This document shows, one piece after another, positions 1 through 44,140 of a DNA stretch of 64,000 bases. The translations under genes were made by a program, and so were the position numbers. Positions within the stretch are counted from its first letter, which is position 1, and each line of letters begins with the position of its first letter. The DNA comes from Minisyncoccota bacterium (lineage in GTDB: Bacteria > Patescibacteriota > Minisyncoccia > Phycocordibacterales > JAACPR01), in assembly GCA_041674225.1 (NCBI GenBank), contig JBAYWG010000001.1, positions 169,401 to 233,400 on the forward strand, written 5' to 3'. The notes under the pieces were generated by a model. The model ran no database searches. It had not been told where the DNA came from and saw only the letters and a list, made by a program, of their open reading frames with translations.

Positions 1-695
1 GTTGAAGGTAGCTTATTTCTGTCGATCTGATATCCGTTCTCATGAACTCGATCAAAGACTTCCTCTCCAAACACTCGAATGAGTGTTTCAGAACTGAGCC
101 GTGAACGACCCGGCGCATCCGTCACCGTAAAGTGATAGGACTTGAGACCAGTTTTCACGATACTTGCAGCCGTAAGGTAAGCAGCAGCGAAAAGACCGTA
201 TTGAGGATCTTCATCAGTGTCTCCACCTTCTGATTCAGGCACCATCATGCGAAGTTCTTCCGCAATTTTGATATCCATCTCAGCCTGACTCCTTTGAAGA
301 ACGTAGTTATCCACCACATCTCCAAAAATAGAACTGATGATCTGCAAATCGTAACGAGCCAAAGGTGCACCAACAGCCTCCATCAAAAGATGGTAAGCTC
401 GAGGCAATGAATCGAACGCAAGTTGAACATTGTGTCCCATGGACCCTGTAGTATCAAACAGAGTTTCAAGCAACATCGCTTGCGCGACATTGAGCCGAAA
501 CCACTTTTCCAACACATGCTCAAAACGATTCCTTGAGAACCTAATTCCGCCAAATCCTTTCGGATCGACTAGTTCATGCAGACCTTTGCCTTCCCGGTGA
601 CGCTGTTTACCGATTAAGGTTGCATCGCCACCACTTCTCTTTACTTCTTCAAAAACTTCAGCAAATGCAGCCTTAGTTGGTTTATTTTCTCCCAT
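1..695 (-). CDS. vWA (von Willebrand factor A) domain protein, N-terminal 231 codons only; the C-terminus lies outside the window
   Basis: Hand translation from ATG 695..693 stays open to nt 1. It is absent from the ORF track because there is no stop in the window. Sequence: MGENKPTKAAF...LFDTTGSMGHN...SIFGD...GGDTDEDPQYG. A DxTxS MIDAS-type motif followed by GGxT fits a vWA fold. Confidence 0.55.
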   Translation of the reverse strand, partial: MGENKPTKAAFAEVFEEVKRSGGDATLIGKQRHREGKGLHELVDPKGFGGIRFSRNRFEHVLEKWFRLNVAQAMLLETLFDTTGSMGHNVQLAFDSLPRAYHLLMEAVGAPLARYDLQIISSIFGDVVDNYVLQRSQAEMDIKIAEELRMMVPESEGGDTDEDPQYGLFAAAYLTAASIVKTGLKSYHFTVTDAPGRSRLSSETLIRVFGEEVFDRVHENGYQIDRNKLPS

Positions 696-731
696 AATTT
701 TATTTTTGGTTTTTGGTTTGTTTTTGTATAT

Positions 732-1556
732 TCACGGCAGGATAGAATAAGCCGTAAAATTATGAAATCCAGAAGGCCAGAGTTCAAGTACTGTTGTGTA
801 AAATTGCGTATGCGCTTTTCCAGCATCAGACTCGACACCCTTAGTAAACTTCATGAGAAGTTTTTCATAGACATCACTGCCACCGTATTGATCATCAGCT
901 GGAAGTTTTCCAGTTTTCAAATCTCCACCTAGTGCAGTGATTGTAAGTTGTGCAGCTCGTGCAATCTGTTCAGAAACCCTTTTAGGTTCCAAAACCATGT
1001 TTGAAACAATTGAATTGCTCCAATCAAAAACAACAACACGATGGTTGTCTCGATTGATTAGAACATTGTCTCCACTGAACTGAACACTCACACCAATGTT
1101 GCATGCAAAATCAAGAAGCTTAAGTTGCTTCCCCATAATCCATACACTTGTTTTGGGATCTACACGAATTTTCTCACGAGCAGAAAGATGACCGAGTGGC
1201 ACAAGGTCACTCAGACTTTTCGCTACTCTTGATAAATCCAAGATAAGAACGTTTCTGTCTCCCTGCTCCTTCGAAATAAAACTTTCGAGAAGAAAAGGGA
1301 AAGACTTGTCGTACTGAAACGTATTTTCTGGATCAATTCTTTCGACACCATCCTGCAGAGTTTGCAGAACAAATGCCTCTAGATCAAGTTTTCCATTGTG
1401 CGTCTTTTCACGAGCAATCTTCAGGATTCCGGGTTTACAATCTTCCAGAATACACTCGTAAAGGGTAAAACTTTCTGTTTGACCCAAACGCTCACCAACT
1501 TCGTACTGAGCCGTGGGGCTTTGTATAAACTGAGCCGTAAAAGGTTTAGTTTTCAT
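732..1556 (-). CDS. atypical protein-kinase-like fold protein
   Basis: 274-aa ORF ending 36 nt upstream of the vWA gene start. The motif order is kinase-like: YEVGERLGQTESFTLYE (Gly-loop-like), GILKIARE (VAIK-like Lys), LEAFVLQ (helix-C Glu), SGDNVLIN (catalytic D-x4-N), VVFDWSNS (DFG-like). There is no HRD His. Confidence 0.5.
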   Translation of the reverse strand: MKTKPFTAQFIQSPTAQYEVGERLGQTESFTLYECILEDCKPGILKIAREKTHNGKLDLEAFVLQTLQDGVERIDPENTFQYDKSFPFLLESFISKEQGDRNVLILDLSRVAKSLSDLVPLGHLSAREKIRVDPKTSVWIMGKQLKLLDFACNIGVSVQFSGDNVLINRDNHRVVVFDWSNSIVSNMVLEPKRVSEQIARAAQLTITALGGDLKTGKLPADDQYGGSDVYEKLLMKFTKGVESDAGKAHTQFYTTVLELWPSGFHNFTAYSILP

Positions 1557-1645
1557 TGAGTTTTTGATTCTTTGGTTGATTATTAAAGATCTATTTTTAG
1601 GTTAAATTTTAGCTCTTTATATATATAAAATGGTGTTTTGTCAAT

Positions 1646-2929
1646 ATGAGCCATATCACAAAAAATAAACAATATGCTACGATACCAGCAATGAGCGCGG
1701 ATGTATGGGATGTAATAGTAATAGGTGGCGGACCAGCCGGAATGATGGCGGCGGGTCGTGCTGCAGAGCGAGGAAAAAAAGTCCTACTAATAGAGAAAAA
1801 TGATTCGCTTGGAAAAAAACTACTTATCACAGGAGGTGGTCGTTGTAATGTGACAAATGCAGAGCTCGACACCAGAAAATTATTATCAAAATTCAAAGAC
1901 GGAGGAAAATTTCTTTTTTCATCTTTTGCAGAATGGAATGTGCAAAATACTTTGGATTTTTTTCATACTAGAAATATGCCAACTAAAATTGAAAAAGAAT
2001 TGCGCGTCTTCCCTGTTTCCGACAAAGCACAATCAGTTTGGAATGTTTTAGTTGATTATATTAAAAAAAATAAAGTCACAATTCTTTCTGATTCCCCTGT
2101 TTCAGATTTTGTTTTAGAAGACGGAAAAATAGTTGGGGTGAAAGTGAAAAAAGATATTATCAAAGGTAAAAGTTTTATCCTGGCCACAGGAGGAACATCT
2201 AGACCGGAAACAGGTTCTACAGGTGACGGTTTCAAATGGCTTAAAAAAATTGGTCACACTGTAATAGAACCGGTTCCTTCTCTTGTGCCAATCGCCGCAA
2301 AAGATATTTGGATAAAAAGATTGTCTGGTGTGAGTCTGAATGACATAAAATTAACAGTCACACAAAACGGCGAGAAACAAAGTGTTCAAAAAGGAAGAAT
2401 TCTTTTTACTCATGTCGGCATTAGTGGACCAACAATTTTAAATATGTCCAAAGATATCGGTGAACTTCTGAAATATGGAGAGGTAAAAATTCTTTTGGAT
2501 CTTTTGCCAAATCATGATCACGCCAAATTAAATTCTACTCTTCAAGAAATTTTTAAAGAGAACGACAAAAAGAATTTCAAAAATTCCCTTTCAGGATTAA
2601 TTCCTTCTGCAATGATTCCAATAATTACTGAACTTTCAAAAATAGATCCGGATATCAAATGCAACAGCATCACTCGAGAATCACGAATGAAATTGATTGA
2701 ACTTCTAAAAAATATTCCACTAAATGTGCATAAATTACTTGGGGTTGATAAAGCAATTATTTCAAGCGGTGGAGTTTTACTCGACGAAGTAGATTTCAAA
2801 ACAATGTCATCGAGAATTTACCCGAATCTATTTTTAATTGGAGACATTCTAAACATCGACAGACCGAGTGGTGGCTATAGTTTGCAGTTGTGTTGGACAA
2901 CGGGTTTTGTCGCTGGGAATTCTATTTAA
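1646..2929 (+). CDS. HI0933/BaiN-family NAD(P)/FAD-dependent oxidoreductase
   Basis: The dinucleotide fold DVIVIGGGPAGMMAAGRAAERGKKVLLIEK is followed by ITGGGRCNVTN, the hallmark of HI0933-like flavoproteins. An alternative start is ATG 1691. Confidence 0.85.
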   Translation: MSHITKNKQYATIPAMSADVWDVIVIGGGPAGMMAAGRAAERGKKVLLIEKNDSLGKKLLITGGGRCNVTNAELDTRKLLSKFKDGGKFLFSSFAEWNVQNTLDFFHTRNMPTKIEKELRVFPVSDKAQSVWNVLVDYIKKNKVTILSDSPVSDFVLEDGKIVGVKVKKDIIKGKSFILATGGTSRPETGSTGDGFKWLKKIGHTVIEPVPSLVPIAAKDIWIKRLSGVSLNDIKLTVTQNGEKQSVQKGRILFTHVGISGPTILNMSKDIGELLKYGEVKILLDLLPNHDHAKLNSTLQEIFKENDKKNFKNSLSGLIPSAMIPIITELSKIDPDIKCNSITRESRMKLIELLKNIPLNVHKLLGVDKAIISSGGVLLDEVDFKTMSSRIYPNLFLIGDILNIDRPSGGYSLQLCWTTGFVAGNSI

Positions 2930-7341: not shown

Positions 7342-7433
7342 ATTGTTTATATTATTGATTAATTAGTTATATATCCATTATAGCAAATTTAAACCATATA
7401 ACTTTTATCTCCAAAATATAATAGAATACAACT

Positions 7434-8294
7434 ATGCAAATAAAACGCCTTCTAAAAATAAGCCGACCGAGATTTTGGATTTATGAAATAGGTCCTTATA
7501 TTGTAGGAATTGCAGCAGCAGCGGGTATAACACTGAACGCGTGGCTTTTAATCCCCGCGATCATATTTTTCTTTTTTTTCACATATCCAGCAAATATTTT
7601 TATCTACGGAATTAATGACATTTTTGATTACGAAACAGATAAATTAAATCCAAAAAAAATATCCTACGAATCTCTTGTAATGCCGGAAGAGTGGCCAAAG
7701 CTTTGGAAAAATATTATTTTGTTTTGTGCGCCTTTTTTAGTCTATGGATTTTTTGTTTTAAATATTCAAAGCTTCATCGCGCTTCTGGCTTTCTTTTTCT
7801 TTGCGGGATTTTATTCATCTACACCGATCCGTGCAAAAGCTCGTCCTTTTTTAGACAGTATTTTTAGTGCAGGACATTATGTTGCTACAGCCGTGTTTTC
7901 ATATTTGATGATTAATTATTTTTTAAATCAAGAAATTACTTGGGTTAATCTCGCGATTGGCACACTTGCAGGAATGTTTTGGGCTATAGCTATGCATGCA
8001 TATTCCGCAGTTCCGGATATTCAAGCAGACAGAGATGCAAAACTAGAAACCATTGCTACAAAGTTAGAAAAAAATAAAACAATAATTTTATGCTCAGTTC
8101 TTTATGCACTTTCTGGAATTCTTGCTTTCAAATTTTTAGGGATAGTCAGCATTATCCTTTCACTTGTTTATGTTGTATTTATGATCAAATCAATCAAAAC
8201 AACAGACGAACAACTTTTCAAAATTTATACTTATTTCCCAAAAATAAATTCTCTTTCAGGAATGATTATTTTCTTTTCAGTTTTACTTAATTAG
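7434..8294 (+). CDS. UbiA-family prenyltransferase, lycopene-elongase-like (CrtEb/LyeJ type)
   Basis: The N-terminal SRPRFWIYEIGPY and the Asp-rich NDIFDYETDKLNPKK are UbiA motifs. The protein is polytopic and its gene converges on crtI with a 4-nt overlap. Confidence 0.6.
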   Translation: MQIKRLLKISRPRFWIYEIGPYIVGIAAAAGITLNAWLLIPAIIFFFFFTYPANIFIYGINDIFDYETDKLNPKKISYESLVMPEEWPKLWKNIILFCAPFLVYGFFVLNIQSFIALLAFFFFAGFYSSTPIRAKARPFLDSIFSAGHYVATAVFSYLMINYFLNQEITWVNLAIGTLAGMFWAIAMHAYSAVPDIQADRDAKLETIATKLEKNKTIILCSVLYALSGILAFKFLGIVSIILSLVYVVFMIKSIKTTDEQLFKIYTYFPKINSLSGMIIFFSVLLN

Positions 8295-9796
8295 ATTTCT
8301 TTTAGTGGTTCTGCGTCTTGTATATTTTCTAATCTTTTATAAACCAACTCTGCAGAAATTAAACAAATAGGCATACCGATTCCTGGATTTGTACCGGCAC
8401 CCACATAATAAAGATTCTTAACCTTCTTGCTAACATTATTCGGTCGAAAAATTGCAGTCTGACTCAATGAGTGTGCAAAACCTAGTGCAGTACCTTTAAA
8501 TGCATTGTAGTCCTTGATGAAGTCTTTTACAGAATAAAGCTTTTTATACACAATTCTATTTTTGAAATCTGGAATATCCATATTTTCTGCCATTTGATTT
8601 ATTACAAACTCAGAATATTCTTCTAGTGATTCATCAGTGTGATCTAAACCAGAAGCAATTGGCACAAGTACAAACAAATTTTCTTTATCAGCTGGCGCTA
8701 CATTTGCATCAGTTTTTGATGGACAACAAACATACAGAGAAGGATCTGTTGGCCATGTAGGTTTTTTAAATATTTGTGAAAAGTTTTCTTCCCAATTTTC
8801 AGCAAACAAAAGATTGTGGTGTTGCAGAGACGGAATTTTTCCTTCTACTCCCATGTACATAATAAATGCAGATGGTGCAAGCAATCGTGATTCCCAATAT
8901 TTTTTACTTTTCTCCCGGTGTGGCTCATCCAAAAGATGCATATCTGTGTGAGCAGTATCTGCATTTGAAATCACAATATCAGCTCGAAATTCTTGTCCGT
9001 TTTCCAATCTCACTCCCACAGCAGTTTTATTTTCAACAATAATTTTATTTACAGGACTGTTTAACAAAATCTCAACTCCGTGTTTTTTGGCAATAGTTTC
9101 CAACGCTTCTATGATTTTATAAATACCTCCTTCTGGATACCAAATTCCCTCCACAAAATCTACATAATTCATCATGCTATAAATCCCCGGCGCATCTCCA
9201 GGAGAAGTTCCAAGCAAAACAGTTTGATATTGCATTACTTTTCTCAGAATTTCGCTTTTGAATTTTTTCTCGATGATAGACTTCACACTTGAGAAGAGCG
9301 GGAGTTTTCTTCCTTCTTTCATTACTCTTTTGTTGAAGAAGTCAAAAATAGTATCGTAGTTTTTAAACATGAATTCATTTTTTGCGATTTCATATTGATA
9401 CTTTGTACTATCCATATATTTTCTCAAAACATCACCAGAACCCGGCTCCAAACTTTCAAAAGTTTCGATTGTTTTTTCTAAATCAGAATAAAAATCATAA
9501 TGTTTCTTTTCGCTTTTTAGAAAAATCCGGTACGAAGGAGAAAGTCTTTTTAATTTTAAATATTGAGTAATATCTTCACCCATCAATTTAAAAAAGTGCT
9601 CAAAAATATCTGGCATCATGTACCAAGACGGCCCCATATCAAAAACAAAACCATCTTCGGAATAGATTCTGGCTCTACCGCCGACTTGATCATTTTTTTC
9701 AATCATCTTCACCTTGTATCCCTTTTTAGCCAACATACAAGCCGTAGAAAGGCCTCCGATACCTGTTCCTATTATGATTACTTCTTTTTGACTCAT
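8291..9796 (-). CDS. crtI: phytoene desaturase
   Basis: EVIIIGTGIGGLSTACMLAKKGYKVKMIEKNDQVGGRA FAD fold, 501 aa, C-terminal YYVGAGTNPGIGMP. Located in the crt cluster. Confidence 0.85.
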   Translation of the reverse strand: MSQKEVIIIGTGIGGLSTACMLAKKGYKVKMIEKNDQVGGRARIYSEDGFVFDMGPSWYMMPDIFEHFFKLMGEDITQYLKLKRLSPSYRIFLKSEKKHYDFYSDLEKTIETFESLEPGSGDVLRKYMDSTKYQYEIAKNEFMFKNYDTIFDFFNKRVMKEGRKLPLFSSVKSIIEKKFKSEILRKVMQYQTVLLGTSPGDAPGIYSMMNYVDFVEGIWYPEGGIYKIIEALETIAKKHGVEILLNSPVNKIIVENKTAVGVRLENGQEFRADIVISNADTAHTDMHLLDEPHREKSKKYWESRLLAPSAFIMYMGVEGKIPSLQHHNLLFAENWEENFSQIFKKPTWPTDPSLYVCCPSKTDANVAPADKENLFVLVPIASGLDHTDESLEEYSEFVINQMAENMDIPDFKNRIVYKKLYSVKDFIKDYNAFKGTALGFAHSLSQTAIFRPNNVSKKVKNLYYVGAGTNPGIGMPICLISAELVYKRLENIQDAEPLKEI

Positions 9797-10701
9797 GATT
9801 TTTTAATTAATGTTAAAAACGCTAACTTAAGTTTTTCTCCAAAACTTAAATGAACTCTGCCAGCGAAAATGTCGTATTTTACAACCTCTATCTTAACAAT
9901 AATTTTTGAATATAAAACTCGTGCTACTTTTATCGCTTTCGCCTCTCTTTTAGGCAACATTTGCAATCCGATATCAGCTTTTTTATAAAGATCTTCAGTT
10001 CTAGCAATTTCAAATTTCATCAAATCAATAAAATTTTGATTTATATTTTTATTAACTAAATCATCTTTTGTCACCCCAAACTTTTGCATTTCATCTTGTG
10101 GAAGATAAACTCTATCTCTTTGTATTACATCTTCATAAATATCGCGCAAAAAATTTGTCATTTGAAATGCTTCGCCAAGCGCTTTTGCATGATCTAGAAT
10201 TTTATTTCTATAATCTAAATCTGTAACAAATCTTTTATCTTTTGAACAAACTATATAAACCATCATATAACCCACTACTACAGCCGAACCATACATATAG
10301 TCTTCCAATTCTTTATAATTTTGATACTCAGTTTTTGAAGTATCTTGAATCATAGCCGAAATAAAATCTTCACTATATTCAAAAGAAATTTTGTATGTGT
10401 CAAAAACATATTTTGTGGCACGTAAAACTTTTAATTCATCTCCTTCGGCAAAATATTCTTCACCGCGATAACACTTACCCCACACCTCCTTCCACTCATT
10501 TAATTTTTCTAAAGCTAAATCTTTTTGATCTTTATATGTAGTATCTATATATTCATCTGGTAAACGAAAAAATGCATACAAAACACAGATCGCATCACGA
10601 TACTCCGCACCCATTAACAAAGTTCCAAAATAAAAACTCTTCCCATATTCTCGATGAACTCCTCTGCAAAACTCTAAATCTAAATTATATTCTGGGTACA
10701 T
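9793..10701 (-). CDS. crtB: phytoene synthase
   Basis: YAFFRLPDEYIDT and LGEAFQMTNFLRDIYEDVIQRDRVYLPQDE are the squalene/phytoene synthase signatures. The gene overlaps crtI by 4 nt. Confidence 0.85.
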   Translation of the reverse strand: MYPEYNLDLEFCRGVHREYGKSFYFGTLLMGAEYRDAICVLYAFFRLPDEYIDTTYKDQKDLALEKLNEWKEVWGKCYRGEEYFAEGDELKVLRATKYVFDTYKISFEYSEDFISAMIQDTSKTEYQNYKELEDYMYGSAVVVGYMMVYIVCSKDKRFVTDLDYRNKILDHAKALGEAFQMTNFLRDIYEDVIQRDRVYLPQDEMQKFGVTKDDLVNKNINQNFIDLMKFEIARTEDLYKKADIGLQMLPKREAKAIKVARVLYSKIIVKIEVVKYDIFAGRVHLSFGEKLKLAFLTLIKKS

Positions 10702-11804
10702 TAAGATTTTCTCTTATCAAGCAATATCACAAAATCAAACCACACGTCTTTGATCATTGGTTTAAGATTTGATTTCAAAATTATTTTGTTGGCTTTATCT
10801 AATTGAGAATGAATTTCCTTTTCAGCATAATCAATTGCGCCTGTTTCTTGAAAAAGTTTTTGCAATACAAGTACTGAATATTCATCAATTTCTTTTCCAA
10901 AAAGTGCTAAGAATATATTTCTATCATTTTCTTTGGCGTTTTCAAAAATATATTGCGTCAAAATTGTGTGTTGACCGTCTTGCACATCCAGCAACCTTTT
11001 CTTTCCTGTTTTTTTAGGATCTCCCACAATATCCAAAAGGTCGTCTTGTATTTGAAAAGCCTGACCCAAGCACAACCCCAATTCCTTATAAAAATCTTTG
11101 TTAATATTTTTTCCAGTCAAATTTGCACCGATCAACATTGGATTAACAAAAGAATAAAAGGCTGTTTTGTATTCATTTTTAAGAAAAATATCTTTCATCT
11201 CTACTTCGTACTGAAGCATAAAAGATACATCTAGTATTTGTCCTGCGACCACTTCCTCAATCATTCTAAAAAATATTTGCTGTACTTTTTTATTATTCAA
11301 ACTAGAAATAACTTCATGCGACCAACTAAAAATTAAATCTCCCGCCAAAATAGCAATGGATTCTGCAATGTGTTTTTTATCGCCTCGAGGATACGATGAA
11401 ATAAATTTTTCTAAATAAACATGCGTCGTGTCTTTGGAATGTCTTTCTACACCTTTATCAATAATATCATCATGAATCAAAGCAAACGCATGAAATAATT
11501 CTAAAGCAATTCCAGCTCGCAAAACTTCTTCTTGGTTCACACCACCTTCTGTAGAGTACGCCAAAAAAGCCATATATGGACGAACTCTTTTTCCACCTTC
11601 ACGTACCAAAGACACAGCATAGTCCACTGCTTCCAAACTTAATTTATTATCAGAAAAGTTTTTATAGTTTAAAACTTTGTCATCCAAATACTCATTTAAA
11701 CGAATATTAAAAATATCTTGAAAAGATTTCAGATCATACGCTTTTACAACAGGAATAAAGTTGATTTTTTCTAAGTGAAGGAAAGAAAGAATGTTTTTAA
11801 TCAT
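10701..11804 (-). CDS. crtE: polyprenyl (geranylgeranyl) diphosphate synthase
   Basis: First Asp-rich motif LIHDDIIDKG and second motif FQIQDDLLDIVGDPKKTGK. The stop and start abut crtB. Confidence 0.8.
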   Translation of the reverse strand: MIKNILSFLHLEKINFIPVVKAYDLKSFQDIFNIRLNEYLDDKVLNYKNFSDNKLSLEAVDYAVSLVREGGKRVRPYMAFLAYSTEGGVNQEEVLRAGIALELFHAFALIHDDIIDKGVERHSKDTTHVYLEKFISSYPRGDKKHIAESIAILAGDLIFSWSHEVISSLNNKKVQQIFFRMIEEVVAGQILDVSFMLQYEVEMKDIFLKNEYKTAFYSFVNPMLIGANLTGKNINKDFYKELGLCLGQAFQIQDDLLDIVGDPKKTGKKRLLDVQDGQHTILTQYIFENAKENDRNIFLALFGKEIDEYSVLVLQKLFQETGAIDYAEKEIHSQLDKANKIILKSNLKPMIKDVWFDFVILLDKRKS

Positions 11805-12481: not shown

Positions 12482-14371
12482 TTACTCCTCCAAACCAAAA
12501 TATCTTGGAAACAATACCGGTGTACTATCCGCCGTTATACCATCTCTTGTAATAGGAAGTTGTTGAGAAGTCGCGGGCCATGGCAGGGGAAGTTTTCCAA
12601 CAAAAGGTTTATCTCCAAAAAGCACATCCGCCACACCTTGCCCTTCACTACCAGGAAGCCACGCCGCCACAAGCGCATCCCAAGAAGAAATTTCGTTCGC
12701 AATAAGCAAAGGTCGTCCTGAAATTATTACTACCAAAACTTTTTCAGAAACTGCTTGAAGTTTTTTGATCGCCATCAAATCTTCAGAATATAAAATTGGA
12801 TATTCTCTATCGCCCACTCCTTCTGCATAAGGTTGCTCACCTACAAATGCAATTCCTAAATCAGCTTTCGTACCATCATCCACAAAATTACCTAGTGTTC
12901 GATAATCCACTCTGGTATTTTCGCTTACAGCATTTTTTATTCCATCTATTATAGAAGTCGCTCCTGGCAAATCATTTCCATTTATTCCTTGCCAATTTAC
13001 AGTCCAGGCTCCTGATTGATTTCCAATATTATTTGCAGCACTTCCAACAATACGAATATGTTTTATATTTTTATCAATTGGTAAAACTGAATTATCATTT
13101 TTTAACAGAACCAAAGATTGCGACACGGCATCTCTTGCAAGCGCACGATGTTCTACTGAACCAACAACTTCAGTTGAAATTTTATTTTCATTTTTATCAA
13201 AAAGACCTAGCTCAAATTTTGCATATAAAATTCTCCGCACAGCATCATCTATTCTGTCTTCGGAAACTTCTCCAACACGCACAGCTTTGGAAACATTTTT
13301 AACAAAAGGTTTGTAATCAAAAGGCAACATCACCATATCTACTCCAGCATTAATAGCCGTAATCACAGATCTATAATCACTCCCAGGAATTTCATAAACA
13401 CCATACCAATCAGAAACAACAAAACCTTTAAATCCAAGTTCTTTTTTTAGGACATCAGTAATCAAATATTCACTCGCAGACAATTTAGTTTCACCCCAAG
13501 TATTCAATCCAATCATTACACTTTTCACACCAGCATCTACAACGGCTCTAAATGGAACTAGATATTCTTCTCTAAGTAATTCTTCGTCAGCCAAAGTAGC
13601 ACCTTGATCTATTTTGTAATTTTCATTTGAAGAAGTGTCCCAAAGCATTCCACCAAGTCCAACAAAATGTTTTGCTGTACCTATCACAGAATTTCCCTGT
13701 AATCCTTTTATATATGCAACACCTAAATCAGATACGAGAGCAGGATCATCAGAAAAAGTTTCGTAAACTCTTCCCCAACGAATGTCGCGAGGCATATCAA
13801 GTGTTGGTGAAAAACTCCAATGCACATTTGTTGCTAAAAGTTCTTTTGCAGTAGCAGATGCAATATCTTCGACAAGCTTTGGATCCCTAGTCGCGCCAAG
13901 TCCAATAGAGTGCGGAAAAACTGTAGCTCCAGGAATATTTGAATGCCCATGAATGGCATCAACTCCATAAATTATCGGAATACCGAGACGACTATTTTTG
14001 GATTCATTTATAAAATCTGAAACCATTTTGTTCCAACCTTCAGGGGTATTATTTTCTGGATTCGCTCCAGCGCCACTTAGAAGTGCACCGAGTCCGTACA
14101 AAGAAACATCTTTCATTTCTTCAACACTTTTATTTTCAACAAGAGCCATCTGTCCAATTTTTTCTTCAAGTGTCATATAAGACAAAAGATCTTCAACACG
14201 TTCTTCTACAGAATTATTTGGATTTAAATACAAAGATTCTTTTGTTGGATTTCGTACAATCTTTGTTTCTTCATTCCGAAATAAAAATGATAAAAAATAA
14301 AAAATTCCCACCAAAATAATTAAAAATAAAAATAAGTACACAAGTTTAGCGTTCACTTTAAAATCATCCAT
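12482..14371 (-). CDS. glycoside hydrolase family 3 (beta-glucosidase / beta-hexosaminidase-like), membrane-anchored
   Basis: N-terminal TM segment, then GIPIIYGVDAIHGH, KHFVGLGG and the GFVVSDW nucleophile motif, plus a C-terminal GH3 domain. Confidence 0.85.
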   Translation of the reverse strand: MDDFKVNAKLVYLFLFLIILVGIFYFLSFLFRNEETKIVRNPTKESLYLNPNNSVEERVEDLLSYMTLEEKIGQMALVENKSVEEMKDVSLYGLGALLSGAGANPENNTPEGWNKMVSDFINESKNSRLGIPIIYGVDAIHGHSNIPGATVFPHSIGLGATRDPKLVEDIASATAKELLATNVHWSFSPTLDMPRDIRWGRVYETFSDDPALVSDLGVAYIKGLQGNSVIGTAKHFVGLGGMLWDTSSNENYKIDQGATLADEELLREEYLVPFRAVVDAGVKSVMIGLNTWGETKLSASEYLITDVLKKELGFKGFVVSDWYGVYEIPGSDYRSVITAINAGVDMVMLPFDYKPFVKNVSKAVRVGEVSEDRIDDAVRRILYAKFELGLFDKNENKISTEVVGSVEHRALARDAVSQSLVLLKNDNSVLPIDKNIKHIRIVGSAANNIGNQSGAWTVNWQGINGNDLPGATSIIDGIKNAVSENTRVDYRTLGNFVDDGTKADLGIAFVGEQPYAEGVGDREYPILYSEDLMAIKKLQAVSEKVLVVIISGRPLLIANEISSWDALVAAWLPGSEGQGVADVLFGDKPFVGKLPLPWPATSQQLPITRDGITADSTPVLFPRYFGLEE

Positions 14372-14514
14372 AACATCTATTATACCTTGTGAATCAATTA
14401 ATGACTGCCGAACTTCAACGATTTAATTATCGATGAATACAAGAAAGATAAAAATATCATCGTGGGATGAGTAAGTTGAAGGTGTTGTATAGGAAGTAAA
14501 GAAATCTTAATCTA

Positions 14515-14542
14515 TTTACAAAAAATTATAGTGTTGTATAAT
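14515..14542 (+). promoter_or_regulatory. sigma70-type promoter candidate
   Basis: TTTACA (14515-14520), a 16-nt spacer, then TATAAT (14537-14542), about 60 nt upstream of ATG 14602. Confidence 0.4.
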
Positions 14543-14601
14543 ATAAAAAGACATGCCCCAACTAAATTCAAACAAATCAGGCATGAAAACCTAGTACACT
14601 G

Positions 14602-15114
14602 ATGAAAAATATAGTTATCATTCTGTTAACTCTCACCATATTGATTCCAACTTTAACATTGGCCGATCGCGACCCAGTTGCGAGAGAAAAAATTGAAGAA
14701 ATCGAGAGAGTAATTCGAATCAATGGCTCTGAGAAATTTCTGAACGTCAACAATAACAAATCACTCGCAATCCAATTCTACGAGAACACCGAGCTCATGC
14801 TAATTGATCTCGATAAAGACGGCATCGCGGAATTTGTGAGGTTTAGGAATGAACGGGATATGTCTTCAAGAGACTTCTCTCGTAGAATCTGCACCTGGTT
14901 TATAACGGCCTGCACACCAACAGGTAATCCTGTCGGTGAGTGGGAAATCCGATACGACAACCAAGAACAAGGGCAGATTATTGCACTACTCTTCTTTTGC
15001 GAAAATGCCGAGTCTGCAGGTGTGAAGTCACTCCTATCGCCGATGCTTGTAACGAGTACCGGTATAATCAAAAAGGAACCTCTGGCTTTTCAGCTGAGTA
15101 AAGTCGATTGGTAA
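14602..15114 (+). CDS. hypothetical secreted protein
   Basis: 170 aa with a signal-peptide-like N-terminus MKNIVIILLTLTILIPTLTLA. GC-rich relative to its neighbours. Confidence 0.45.
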   Translation: MKNIVIILLTLTILIPTLTLADRDPVAREKIEEIERVIRINGSEKFLNVNNNKSLAIQFYENTELMLIDLDKDGIAEFVRFRNERDMSSRDFSRRICTWFITACTPTGNPVGEWEIRYDNQEQGQIIALLFFCENAESAGVKSLLSPMLVTSTGIIKKEPLAFQLSKVDW

Positions 15115-22504: not shown

Positions 22505-22575
22505 TTGCCCGACAGGGATTCGAACCCCGATTAATGGCTCCAGAAACCACTGTCCTACCATTAGACGATCAGGCA
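22505..22575 (-). tRNA. tRNA-Gln (CTG)
   Basis: Hand fold: TGCCTGA TC GTCT AATGGTA GGAC A GTGGT TTCTGGA GCCAT TAAT CGGGG TTCGAAT CCCTG TCGGGCA A. It has a U1:A72 pair. CCA is not encoded. Confidence 0.85.
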
Positions 22576-28363: not shown

Positions 28364-28435
28364 AGCCGTTATCGAGGATTGAACTCGAGGCCTCCCCATT
28401 ACCAATGGAGTGCTCTACCACTGAGCTATAACGGC
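28364..28435 (-). tRNA. tRNA-Thr (GGT)
   Basis: Hand fold: GCCGTTA TA GCTC AGTGGTA GAGC A CTCCA TTGGTAA TGGGG AGGCC TCGAG TTCAATC CTCGA TAACGGC T. Confidence 0.9.
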
Positions 28436-40015: not shown

Positions 40016-40089
40016 CGCGAGTGATGGGACTCGAACCCACGACCTTCCGCGTGACAGGCGGACGCTCTAACCAGCTGAGCTACACCCGC
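40016..40089 (-). tRNA. tRNA-Asp (GTC)
   Basis: Hand fold: GCGGGTG TA GCTC AGCTGGTTA GAGC G TCCGC CTGTCAC GCGGA AGGTC GTGGG TTCGAGT CCCAT CACTCGC G. Confidence 0.9.
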
Positions 40090-40170: not shown

Positions 40171-40244
40171 TCCCGAGGGACGGAATTGAACCGTCGACCT
40201 TAGCTTTATGAGTGCTACGCTCTAACCAACTGAGCTACCCCGGG
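40171..40244 (-). tRNA. tRNA with CAT anticodon (elongator Met, or Ile2 if lysidine-modified)
   Basis: Hand fold: CCCGGGG TA GCTC AGTTGGTTA GAGC G TAGCA CTCATAA AGCTA AGGTC GACGG TTCAATT CCGTC CCTCGGG A. The 1:72 pair is Watson-Crick, so it is not an initiator. Confidence 0.85.
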
Positions 40245-44069: not shown

Positions 44070-44140
44070 TTGCGGGGCCCGGAATTGCACCGGGGTCTAG
44101 AGGTTATGAGCCTCTCGAGGTACTACTCCTCTACCCCGCG
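44070..44140 (-). tRNA. initiator-type tRNA-fMet (CAT) with atypical D- and T-loops
   Basis: Hand fold: CGCGGGG TA GAGG AGTAGTA CCTC G AGAGG CTCATAA CCTCT AGAC CCCGG TGCAATT CCGGG CCCCGCA A. It shows a C1xA72 mismatch and A11:U24. The D-loop lacks GG and T-loop position 55 is G. Confidence 0.65.

Follow-up and report, generated by a model that had tools for sequence, protein, structure and literature searches.

Does the pair of genes at the left edge of a stretch of Patescibacteria DNA, one encoding a kinase-like protein and the other a protein that has a domain of the von Willebrand factor A (vWA) type, belong to one of the known vWA-centred conflict systems, as a first-pass annotation of the same DNA had suggested, or to a unit of a different kind? 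The stretch, hereafter the window, comprises 64,000 nucleotides (nt) of contig JBAYWG010000001.1, from a Paceibacterota (Patescibacteria) metagenome-assembled genome (MAG). The first-pass annotation had also held that the two coupled genes are part of a larger unit that runs past the window edge, and this was confirmed on the full contig, where the kinase-like, vWA, PurA-like and SAM-domain genes follow each other on one strand and are met by a convergent gene for a Polβ nucleotidyltransferase. The parts have known folds; the five-gene combination matches no system that is known or could be found, and is apparently undescribed. No description of the cluster was found in the full-text literature, which excluded subscription-only papers, and a survey of kinases in the oral microbiome has vWA in an unrelated context only. 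The five-gene unit is strongly conserved and widespread in Patescibacteria, a group that accounts for much of bacterial diversity and in which most conserved genes are without known function. The genes are given below, first by window position and then by position in the source-contig locus L001, of which the window is the reverse complement (window position 1 corresponds to L001 position 11556); aa stands for amino acids.

Window 732..1556, minus strand: kinase-fold gene, 274 aa, first of the cluster (open reading frame [ORF], structural model, Foldseek, family profile)
Window 696..731, minus strand: spacer of 36 nt between the kinase-like and vWA genes, which are co-oriented and tightly linked (sequence)
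Window 1..695, minus strand: vWA gene with its metal ion-dependent adhesion site (MIDAS), first 231 codons of 380 aa, the other 149 lying on the source contig (ORF)
L001 10001-10825, plus strand: kinase-like protein
L001 10862-12004, plus strand: vWA protein, 380 aa
L001 12090-13481, plus strand: PurA-family protein (Pfam Adenylsucc_synt, 2e-34)
L001 about 13646-14857, plus strand: protein of ~400 aa with a SAM-like N-terminal domain (SAM_TNK matches in 18/39 members)
L001 14907-16568, minus strand: protein of 553 aa whose C-terminal domain is a Polβ nucleotidyltransferase of MNT/HI0073 type (PDB, 1.7e-5; Pfam Polbeta in 31/39 members)

The kinase-like protein and its vWA partner

A test of whether the kinase-like ORF at the window edge takes a non-kinase fold returned a kinase fold, which bears out what the first-pass annotation had claimed. 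The AlphaFold2 (AF2) model of the protein, computed with 25 homologues, has a predicted local distance difference test score (pLDDT) of 94.3 and a predicted template modelling score (pTM) of 0.90, and a Foldseek search of the PDB gave 1825 matches at E<=1e-3, mostly to Hanks-type kinases and led by PknB (7.8e-9), GAK and phosphorylase kinase, with E of about 1e-8 and template modelling (TM) scores of about 0.6. Model and search agree on a bilobal protein-kinase fold, and a profile of 34 family members matches CK2α (E 2e-5) over a span that contains the catalytic loop together with the DWG motif. In this alignment the family segment lLKllaF...geNiLi...vvifDWs lies against a CK2 stretch ending in ...LIDWG, so that FDW (D178-W179) of the window protein is the counterpart of the CK2 DWG, in agreement with the DFG-like DW reported earlier. 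The D-x4-N motif reported with it is literally there (D163..N168), but it is out of register as a catalytic motif: the catalytic-loop Asn by homology is N164, and both D163 and N168 are variable positions.

Besides N164 and D178-W179, the window protein has K46 as β3 Lys and E60 as αC Glu. The column of the HRD Asp is variable or gapped when compared with CK2α, the window protein having Q159 or a gap there, and no conserved Asp column was found at the catalytic-Asp position among the 34 family members; the lack of HRD, which had been noted for the window protein, holds across the family. In these 34 sequences the β3 Lys position is occupied by K (16), Q (12), R (4) or A (2), the αC Glu is E in 20/34, the catalytic-loop Asn is N in 28/34 and the DFG Asp is D in 30/34, and the family invariants (D133, W139, G142, H172 and Y253) lie elsewhere. 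Because the catalytic HRD Asp is missing, the protein, a Hanks-type fold without catalytic base, is likely either a pseudokinase or an atypical nucleotide-binding protein or subunit.

The vWA ORF starts with an ATG at 695 on the minus strand, exactly 36 nt after the kinase-like stop (696-731, read from the sequence and equal to the spacing first reported), reads MGENK...LFDTTGSMGHN and leaves the window at its left edge. A 66%-identical homologue (P0002) was modelled by AF2 as a vWA (Rossmann-like α/β) fold with a pLDDT of 91. The vWA assignment with a DTTGSM MIDAS motif is upheld: the motif D81-T-T83-G-S85-M occupies window 438-455, and D81, T83, S85 and D193 are invariant among 30 vWA homologues, D159 being nearly so. 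The MIDAS is complete, with D81-x-T83-x-S85, D193 and the acidic D159, which stands at a position where most vWA domains have Thr and integrin β I-like domains have Glu. Further invariants are T82, M86, G157, G158, E162, D163, P164 and T175. The penultimate C-terminal Trp is nearly invariant, follows a disordered tail and looks like a docking motif. All 673 vWA homologues at 49-66% identity come from Patescibacteria MAGs, and all are unannotated. In the public NCBI record (P0001, WC087_00895) the vWA protein starts at M86 (window 438-440), inside DTTGSM; this start drops 85 conserved N-terminal residues, and the homologue alignment favours the upstream ATG at window 695.

Sequence libraries alone scarcely detect either domain. 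For the kinase-like protein, Pfam, NCBIfam and PADLOC gave no significant match, and the PHROGs scan found PHROG 3043 'kinase' (1.3e-8); the PHROGs results for the two proteins also include the unannotated phrog_2971. For the vWA protein, Pfam returned only VWA_4 (E 0.18), no vWA or TerY family of Pfam or NCBIfam reached its cutoff, and the vWA profile had no match among PDB sequences, so that the fold is established by structure.

That the two proteins form a complex is supported by a natural fusion, the metagenomic protein P0203 (679 aa), which joins a kinase-like part (52-204) to a vWA part (341-664) and whose gene adjoins a homologue of the SAM-domain protein gene. A search of 1.84 billion representative proteins with the vWA profile returned 490 clusters at E<=1e-3, and the genes of three distant vWA relatives (E 2.6e-38, 1.3e-17 and 6.7e-15) each stand directly after a kinase-like gene; in the distant relatives with downstream contig (L088 and L089), a PurA-like gene comes after the vWA gene. 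At other loci the kinase-like/vWA junction measures roughly 2-45 nt, taken from kinase-like ORF ends to vWA match starts.

As the first-pass annotation had noted, guanine and cytosine (GC) content is raised in both genes, at 0.41 for the kinase-like and 0.46 for the vWA gene vs 0.355 for the window. At third positions it reaches 0.40 in the vWA gene and 0.49 in the SAM-domain gene, the neighbours being at about 0.25 and the PurA-like gene at 0.27; the raised values of the vWA and SAM-domain genes fit either high expression or a distinct origin. Directly 3' of the vWA gene, outside the window, there is a strong terminator-like hairpin (L001 12018-12045; 12-bp stem with 8 G-C pairs and a T-rich tail), which falls between the vWA stop (12004) and the PurA-like start (12090) and may lessen transcription past the first two genes into the remainder of the cluster.

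Conservation of the cluster and its PurA-like enzyme

A scan of GTDB species genomes gave 79 loci, the basis of the conservation counts, which span Paceibacteria, Saccharibacteria, the Falkow-, Moran-, Sungii-, Ryan-, Wildermuth-, Yanofsky-, Jorgensen- and Nomurabacteria groups, and others. When six-frame ORFs of these 79 Candidate Phyla Radiation (CPR) loci, of L001 and of one phage locus (L002) were searched with phmmer, the vWA protein was found in 80 loci, the PurA-like protein in 80 (1 phage) and the kinase-like protein in 68 (1 phage); 67 loci encode the nucleotidyltransferase protein and 49 the SAM-domain protein. Order and strands never differ, and this arrangement recurs in about 80 Patescibacteria loci at the species level. 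All-vs-all clustering of the ORFs yielded five conserved families only, along with divergent forms of the first gene and the SAM-domain protein, and the flanks vary. The vWA gene, for which a context lacking partners had been considered, has fixed partner genes, and the linkage of the kinase-like, vWA and PurA-like genes is obligate and extends to the remotest relatives and to cluster C mycobacteriophages.

A variant architecture was observed at L049, L057, L058, L061, L066, L067, L071 and L072 (for example L049 2735-12567). There, in place of the kinase-like and SAM-domain genes, stand genes for a protein of 240 aa, a classical AAA ATPase of 660 aa (PF00004), a second vWA paralogue and a pyruvate-kinase-barrel/HpcH-like protein of 308 aa, and the loci continue with the vWA gene, the PurA-like gene and the convergent nucleotidyltransferase gene.

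The third protein aligns over its full length with PurA structures of the PDB (profile E 2e-34, the value also obtained with Pfam Adenylsucc_synt) and keeps the P-loop GDxGKG (D16, K19), H45 and D362, which correspond to D13, K16, H41 and D333 of the E. coli enzyme. Its substrate-binding positions are replaced (N38->Q, T129->V, R143 lost, Q224->H and the Asp-loop TTRVG->xIRHG), and the positions that bind the phosphate and base of inosine monophosphate (IMP) and those that bind Asp hold other, themselves invariant, residues. On the NCBIfam models it scores 88.5 bits vs the PurA equivalog cutoff of 402 (NF002223), 81 vs 395 (TIGR00184) and 14.5 vs the PurZ cutoff of 300. Given scores below the PurA and PurZ cutoffs and the replaced substrate residues, the protein is, judged by its sequence, a distinct PurA-family paralogue, with its phosphotransfer chemistry probably intact and its substrates probably different. 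Accordingly, canonical PurA was rejected as its identity (under the equivalog cutoffs, IMP- and Asp-binding residues replaced), and so was PurZ, the succino-amino-deoxyadenylate synthase, on its 14.5 bits vs 300.

These data bear directly on whether the cluster serves ordinary purine salvage, with the PurA-like protein acting as the organism's adenylosuccinate synthetase (IMP to adenosine monophosphate) and the kinase-like and vWA proteins as lineage-specific regulators or chaperones. Patescibacteria rely on nucleotide salvage, and the Pfam match at 2e-34, the full-length PurA alignment and the retained P-loop, catalytic Asp and catalytic His all suit such a role. However, 88 vs 402 bits is far under the PurA equivalog cutoff, as the protein is for every such NCBIfam model, the IMP- and Asp-binding residues are swapped for other invariant ones, no adenylosuccinate lyase is found among the conserved neighbours, and a vWA/kinase partner would be superfluous for a normal PurA, so we consider ordinary purine salvage unlikely. 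Note also that the PurA-like core is routinely annotated as "adenylosuccinate synthetase", which probably distorts metabolic reconstructions of Patescibacteria.

Of the remaining two proteins, the fourth (about 400 aa) gave no significant match in Pfam, NCBIfam, PADLOC or PHROGs, a SAM-like domain (SAM_TNK) being matched in 18 of the 39 family members, and it is missing from some CPR branches. The fifth (550-620 aa; 553 aa in L001) is encoded convergently and carries a C-terminal Polβ (MNT-type) nucleotidyltransferase domain, which matches HI0073 (1.7e-5), is recognised by Pfam Polbeta in 31/39 family members and retains the MNT-type motif GSRxKG...SDxD. With this motif kept, the Polβ nucleotidyltransferase and/or the kinase-fold protein might nucleotidylylate a protein, in the manner of SelO or GlnE, with the vWA protein as docking subunit and the SAM-domain protein or the PurA-like enzyme as candidate targets. 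Some kinase folds without catalytic Asp carry out AMPylation, and a protein-modification or signalling cascade of this kind would suit the SAM-like interaction domain of the fourth protein, the docking-motif-like Trp after the disordered tail of the vWA protein and the ADP-ribosylglycohydrolase gene that adjoins 5 loci. We nevertheless regard it as very improbable, since no target was identified, the SAM-domain and nucleotidyltransferase proteins were not detected in the phage regions searched, the SAM-domain protein is missing from some CPR branches, and the PurA-like enzyme would be left unexplained as an obligate partner.

The mycobacteriophage counterpart and the NAD-salvage context

In phages, tblastn with the kinase-like protein matched only 203 records of cluster C (Bixzunavirus) mycobacteriophages, in which the product is annotated as a Ser/Thr kinase. 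In phage Cane17, gp250 (kinase) is followed by gp251 (hypothetical), then gp252 (small) and gp253 ('2-aminooxy adenylosuccinate synthetase'). The CPR kinase-like profile matches gp250 (E 3.4e-21), which has no catalytic Asp (VHGAITPDN, with HGA at HRD); the vWA profile matches gp251 in two pieces (75-160 and 227-319; E 3e-9), with a Hint/intein between them; and the PurA-like profile matches gp253 (E 3e-125), which has the Q42, RHG and WQGK signatures of the family. The vWA protein itself found no match by tblastn among phage genomes, and its phage homologue emerged through synteny and profile search. The SAM-domain and nucleotidyltransferase proteins were not detected in the 52 kb of phage genome searched, and Cane17 gp3, annotated as a 'nucleotidyltransferase', was rejected as a homologue of the cluster nucleotidyltransferase (hhalign probability 0.2). 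Two scans of IMG/VR yielded 1 locus and 3 loci, respectively, all probably fragments from CPR; since IMG/VR is nearly empty of it, the cluster is not a general phage module.

Two further features of the phage were observed. The N-terminus of gp250 has a J-domain-like segment with HPD (Pfam DnaJ, E 0.012; gp250-gp251 at L002 5644-8534). Between small early genes of Cane17, a perfect palindrome, GAGTGTAAGCGAAACACTC, is repeated (L091 10974-10994 and 11493-11513); it matches the NrtR-type motif of the CPR loci described below with 3 mismatches and probably serves the phage as a regulatory or terminator element.

Around the CPR loci, Pfam was run on the few recurring flank families obtained from the locus clustering, with the following assignments.

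NrtR (NUDIX + NrtR_WHD, 2e-20): 14 loci
Isochorismatase / PncA: 10 loci
NAPRTase / PncB: 8 loci
NadE: 7 loci
ADP-ribosylglycohydrolase: 5 loci

Genes for the salvage of nicotinamide adenine dinucleotide (NAD) are thus the only recurrent neighbours outside the five cluster genes; together these families flank 20/79 loci, with side, strand and arrangement all varying, and six loci have nrtR immediately upstream of the kinase-like gene. A count of inverted repeats showed that the kinase-like gene, nrtR, pncA and nadE share TTAGTGTA-N5-TACACTAA in their upstream regions. In 1.18 Mb of CPR loci it occurs at 54 sites with <=3 mismatches, and at <=2 mismatches 32 sites were observed vs 0.2 expected from first-order Markov simulations. 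At 19/66 loci the kinase-like gene has the palindrome 100-380 nt upstream (22 sites in all), and in four loci the palindrome is found upstream of the nucleotidyltransferase gene. It is a 21-bp palindrome with a GT-N7-AC core, the architecture described for NrtR operators (Rodionov et al., 2008; PMC2330246), from which NrtR is released by adenosine diphosphate ribose (ADP-ribose) (PMC2330246). From these palindrome statistics and the shared operator architecture, the cluster is predicted to be a member of the NrtR regulon in a sizeable minority of lineages.

Distribution, phage occurrence and neighbourhood can also be read in favour of a conflict role, in which the vWA and kinase-like proteins would sense invasion and the PurA-like and nucleotidyltransferase proteins would modify or deplete nucleotides as effectors of defence or counter-defence. 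Pairs of vWA and kinase proteins, as well as nucleotide-centred enzymes, are common in conflict systems. The trio is found in lytic cluster C mycobacteriophages, the genomic context of the cluster varies, its GC content is above the genome level, and NAD and ADP-ribose are contested between phages and their hosts (PMC13464706). On the other hand, the contig and the recurrent flanks have no genes for PP2C, MoxR or Ter proteins, nor for a nuclease, TIR, Sir2 or another effector, none of the five proteins has a PADLOC match, the neighbours are metabolic NAD genes and IMG/VR holds almost no copies. The fixed order and the 40-66% identity across the classes of the phylum, falling with taxonomy, moreover look like vertical descent under purifying selection. 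The phylum-wide spread, fixed order, identity that falls with taxonomic distance and metabolic neighbours speak for a conserved physiological module and against a mobile defence island, and we hold a conflict role to be rather improbable.

On the other side of the kinase-like gene, the window contains the following features.

Window 1557..1645, no strand: divergent intergenic region of 89 nt that separates the kinase-like gene from the gene for the HI0933-like flavoprotein (ORF ends)
Window 1646-2929, plus strand: HI0933-like flavoprotein gene
Window 7434-8294: UbiA prenyltransferase ORF

In this genome the promoter of the cluster is presumed to lie in the 89-nt region, which has no NrtR-type palindrome; no promoter-like site is conspicuous within 1557..1645. 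Farther along, at window about 7430-11550 (L001 1-4123), Pfam identified a polyprenyl synthase, an SQS_PSY phytoene/squalene synthase, an amino-oxidase-type desaturase and the UbiA prenyltransferase, a carotenoid-like isoprenoid cluster that is unexpected in a Paceibacterota genome. Five tRNA genes, all on the minus strand, lie at window 22505-22575, 28364-28435, 40016-40089, 40171-40244 and 44070-44140; besides tRNAs, an Rfam scan of the window found no family above its gathering threshold.

Proposed function and comparison with known systems

The reading that we favour, and for which the chances stand about evenly balanced, is an NAD/ADP-ribose-linked nucleotide module, made of a pseudokinase-vWA complex and a PurA-type ligase that acts on a non-IMP nucleotide, co-regulated by NrtR and borrowed by phages. 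The kinase-fold protein would be a non-phosphorylating, possibly nucleotide-binding subunit bound to the vWA protein; the MIDAS metal of the vWA protein would clamp an acidic ligand, and the pair would scaffold or regulate the PurA-like enzyme. With guanosine or adenosine triphosphate (GTP or ATP), this enzyme would phosphorylate a non-IMP nucleotide at a carbonyl or hydroxyl oxygen and would then couple an amine to the activated substrate. Release of NrtR repression by ADP-ribose would switch the module on together with NAD salvage, so that it could serve adenine- and pyridine-nucleotide homeostasis in bacteria without de novo nucleotide synthesis, and the phage copy would perform the same job during infection.

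Several observations weigh against this proposal. Concerning the kinase-like protein, K46, E60, N164 and D178 are all kept in the close subfamily of the window protein, which may have an atypical catalytic activity, as far as can be told from these residues. Likewise, the PurA-like protein could simply be a divergent adenylosuccinate synthetase. A search of the window and of L001 for NAD genes and for the palindrome found neither, the best palindrome match in L001 9701-10100, around the kinase-like start, having 6 mismatches and lying inside coding sequence, so that for the window locus the NAD link is drawn from relatives only. Among the loci as a whole, 70% are without a recognisable operator of the TTAGTGTA-N5-TACACTAA consensus, and PncB is absent from the mycobacteriophages that bear the trio. 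Finally, Southlakia, a cultivated saccharibacterium, is apparently without the cluster, and its transposon sequencing (Tn-seq) tables are without a PF00709/adenylosuccinate entry; the cluster is therefore not universal.

A bolder version of the proposal takes the trio to be an unrecognised NAD+/ADP-ribose pathway common to Patescibacteria and large mycobacteriophages. PurA-type chemistry would then act on an ADP-ribose or dinucleotide substrate (for example, NAD+ could be rebuilt from ADP-ribose and nicotinamide, or a deaminated dinucleotide re-aminated), the pseudokinase-vWA part would be its obligatory subunit, and phages would thereby withstand NAD-depleting immunity. We consider this version doubtful, and its being correct would surprise us. 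Whatever the reaction, the predicted NrtR control and the cluster C mycobacteriophage copy make a new reaction of NAD or nucleotide salvage directly testable, and the cluster offers both a natural pseudokinase-vWA partnership, supported by the fusion, and a PurA-family enzyme whose substrate pocket is remodelled.

As for the conflict systems with which this analysis began, the first-pass annotation had likened the pair to TerY-P triads and vWA-MoxR systems, and had proposed to extend the contig leftwards and to look for an adjoining PP2C phosphatase, MoxR ATPase or effector gene. The extended contig has no PP2C, MoxR ATPase, Ter or effector gene; its partners are the PurA-like, SAM-domain and Polβ proteins, and the proposed identity was not sustained. 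According to the Pfam list, no PP2C lies within ±10 kb, nor does a TerD-type gene within ±10 kb on the contig of the window, and none of PP2C, MoxR, Ter or effectors recurs in the ORF clustering of 80 related loci. A MoxR-class AAA+ ATPase is absent from the contig of the window and from the main architecture; in the 8-locus side branch, a PF00004 AAA protein stands next to the second vWA copy and matched no MoxR-class Pfam family. Searched against PADLOC-DB 2.0, the five CPR proteins gave noise only (PglW, E 0.056; Can1, E 0.016).

The TerY-P triad reportedly consists of a TerY vWA protein, a PP2C phosphatase and a Ser/Thr kinase. Our cluster resembles it in that a cytoplasmic MIDAS-vWA is encoded beside a kinase-fold protein, but differs in having neither PP2C nor ter genes, in a kinase family without catalytic Asp and in its obligate third partner, a PurA-family enzyme; the triad was rejected as an identity for lack of an adjoining PP2C and of ter genes, no TerY-type vWA cutoff being reached. 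The vWA-MoxR and VMAP systems are said to be conflict systems that depend on nucleoside triphosphates (NTPs), and they share with our cluster a vWA protein at the centre and a link to NTP-dependent enzymes. The window architecture differs from them by the absence of a MoxR AAA+ protein and of a variable effector, and the lone ATPase-bearing side branch has a classical AAA (PF00004); vWA-MoxR was rejected, as neither the window contig nor the main architecture has a MoxR-class ATPase. PrkA/YeaG, YeaH (vWA-like) and YcgB/SpoVR form a conserved operon outside defence that likewise pairs a kinase-like protein, PrkA, which has an AAA+ domain, with a vWA-type protein; these proteins belong to other families, no PurA-like enzyme accompanies them, and no similarity to them surfaced in general searches.

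Two comparisons concern metabolism. With the NrtR regulon the cluster shares, at a minority of its loci, the 21-bp GT-N7-AC palindrome, which also precedes nrtR, pncA and nadE, and its proximity to NAD-salvage genes; with the phage NAD-reconstitution pathways NARP1-3 (PMC13464706) it shares the existence of a phage-borne version. It differs from both in that its five proteins belong to no known NAD-pathway enzyme family, and in that the NAD link is not seen in the window locus or the phage regions examined. With PurA and the phage enzyme PurZ, the PurA-like protein has in common the fold, the P-loop, the catalytic Asp and the catalytic His, and with PurZ also its occurrence in phages. It differs from them in falling under both family cutoffs, in its replaced substrate-binding residues and in its company, its gene being always found with a vWA gene that is preceded by a gene for a kinase-like protein or, in one side branch, for a pyruvate-kinase-barrel-like protein.

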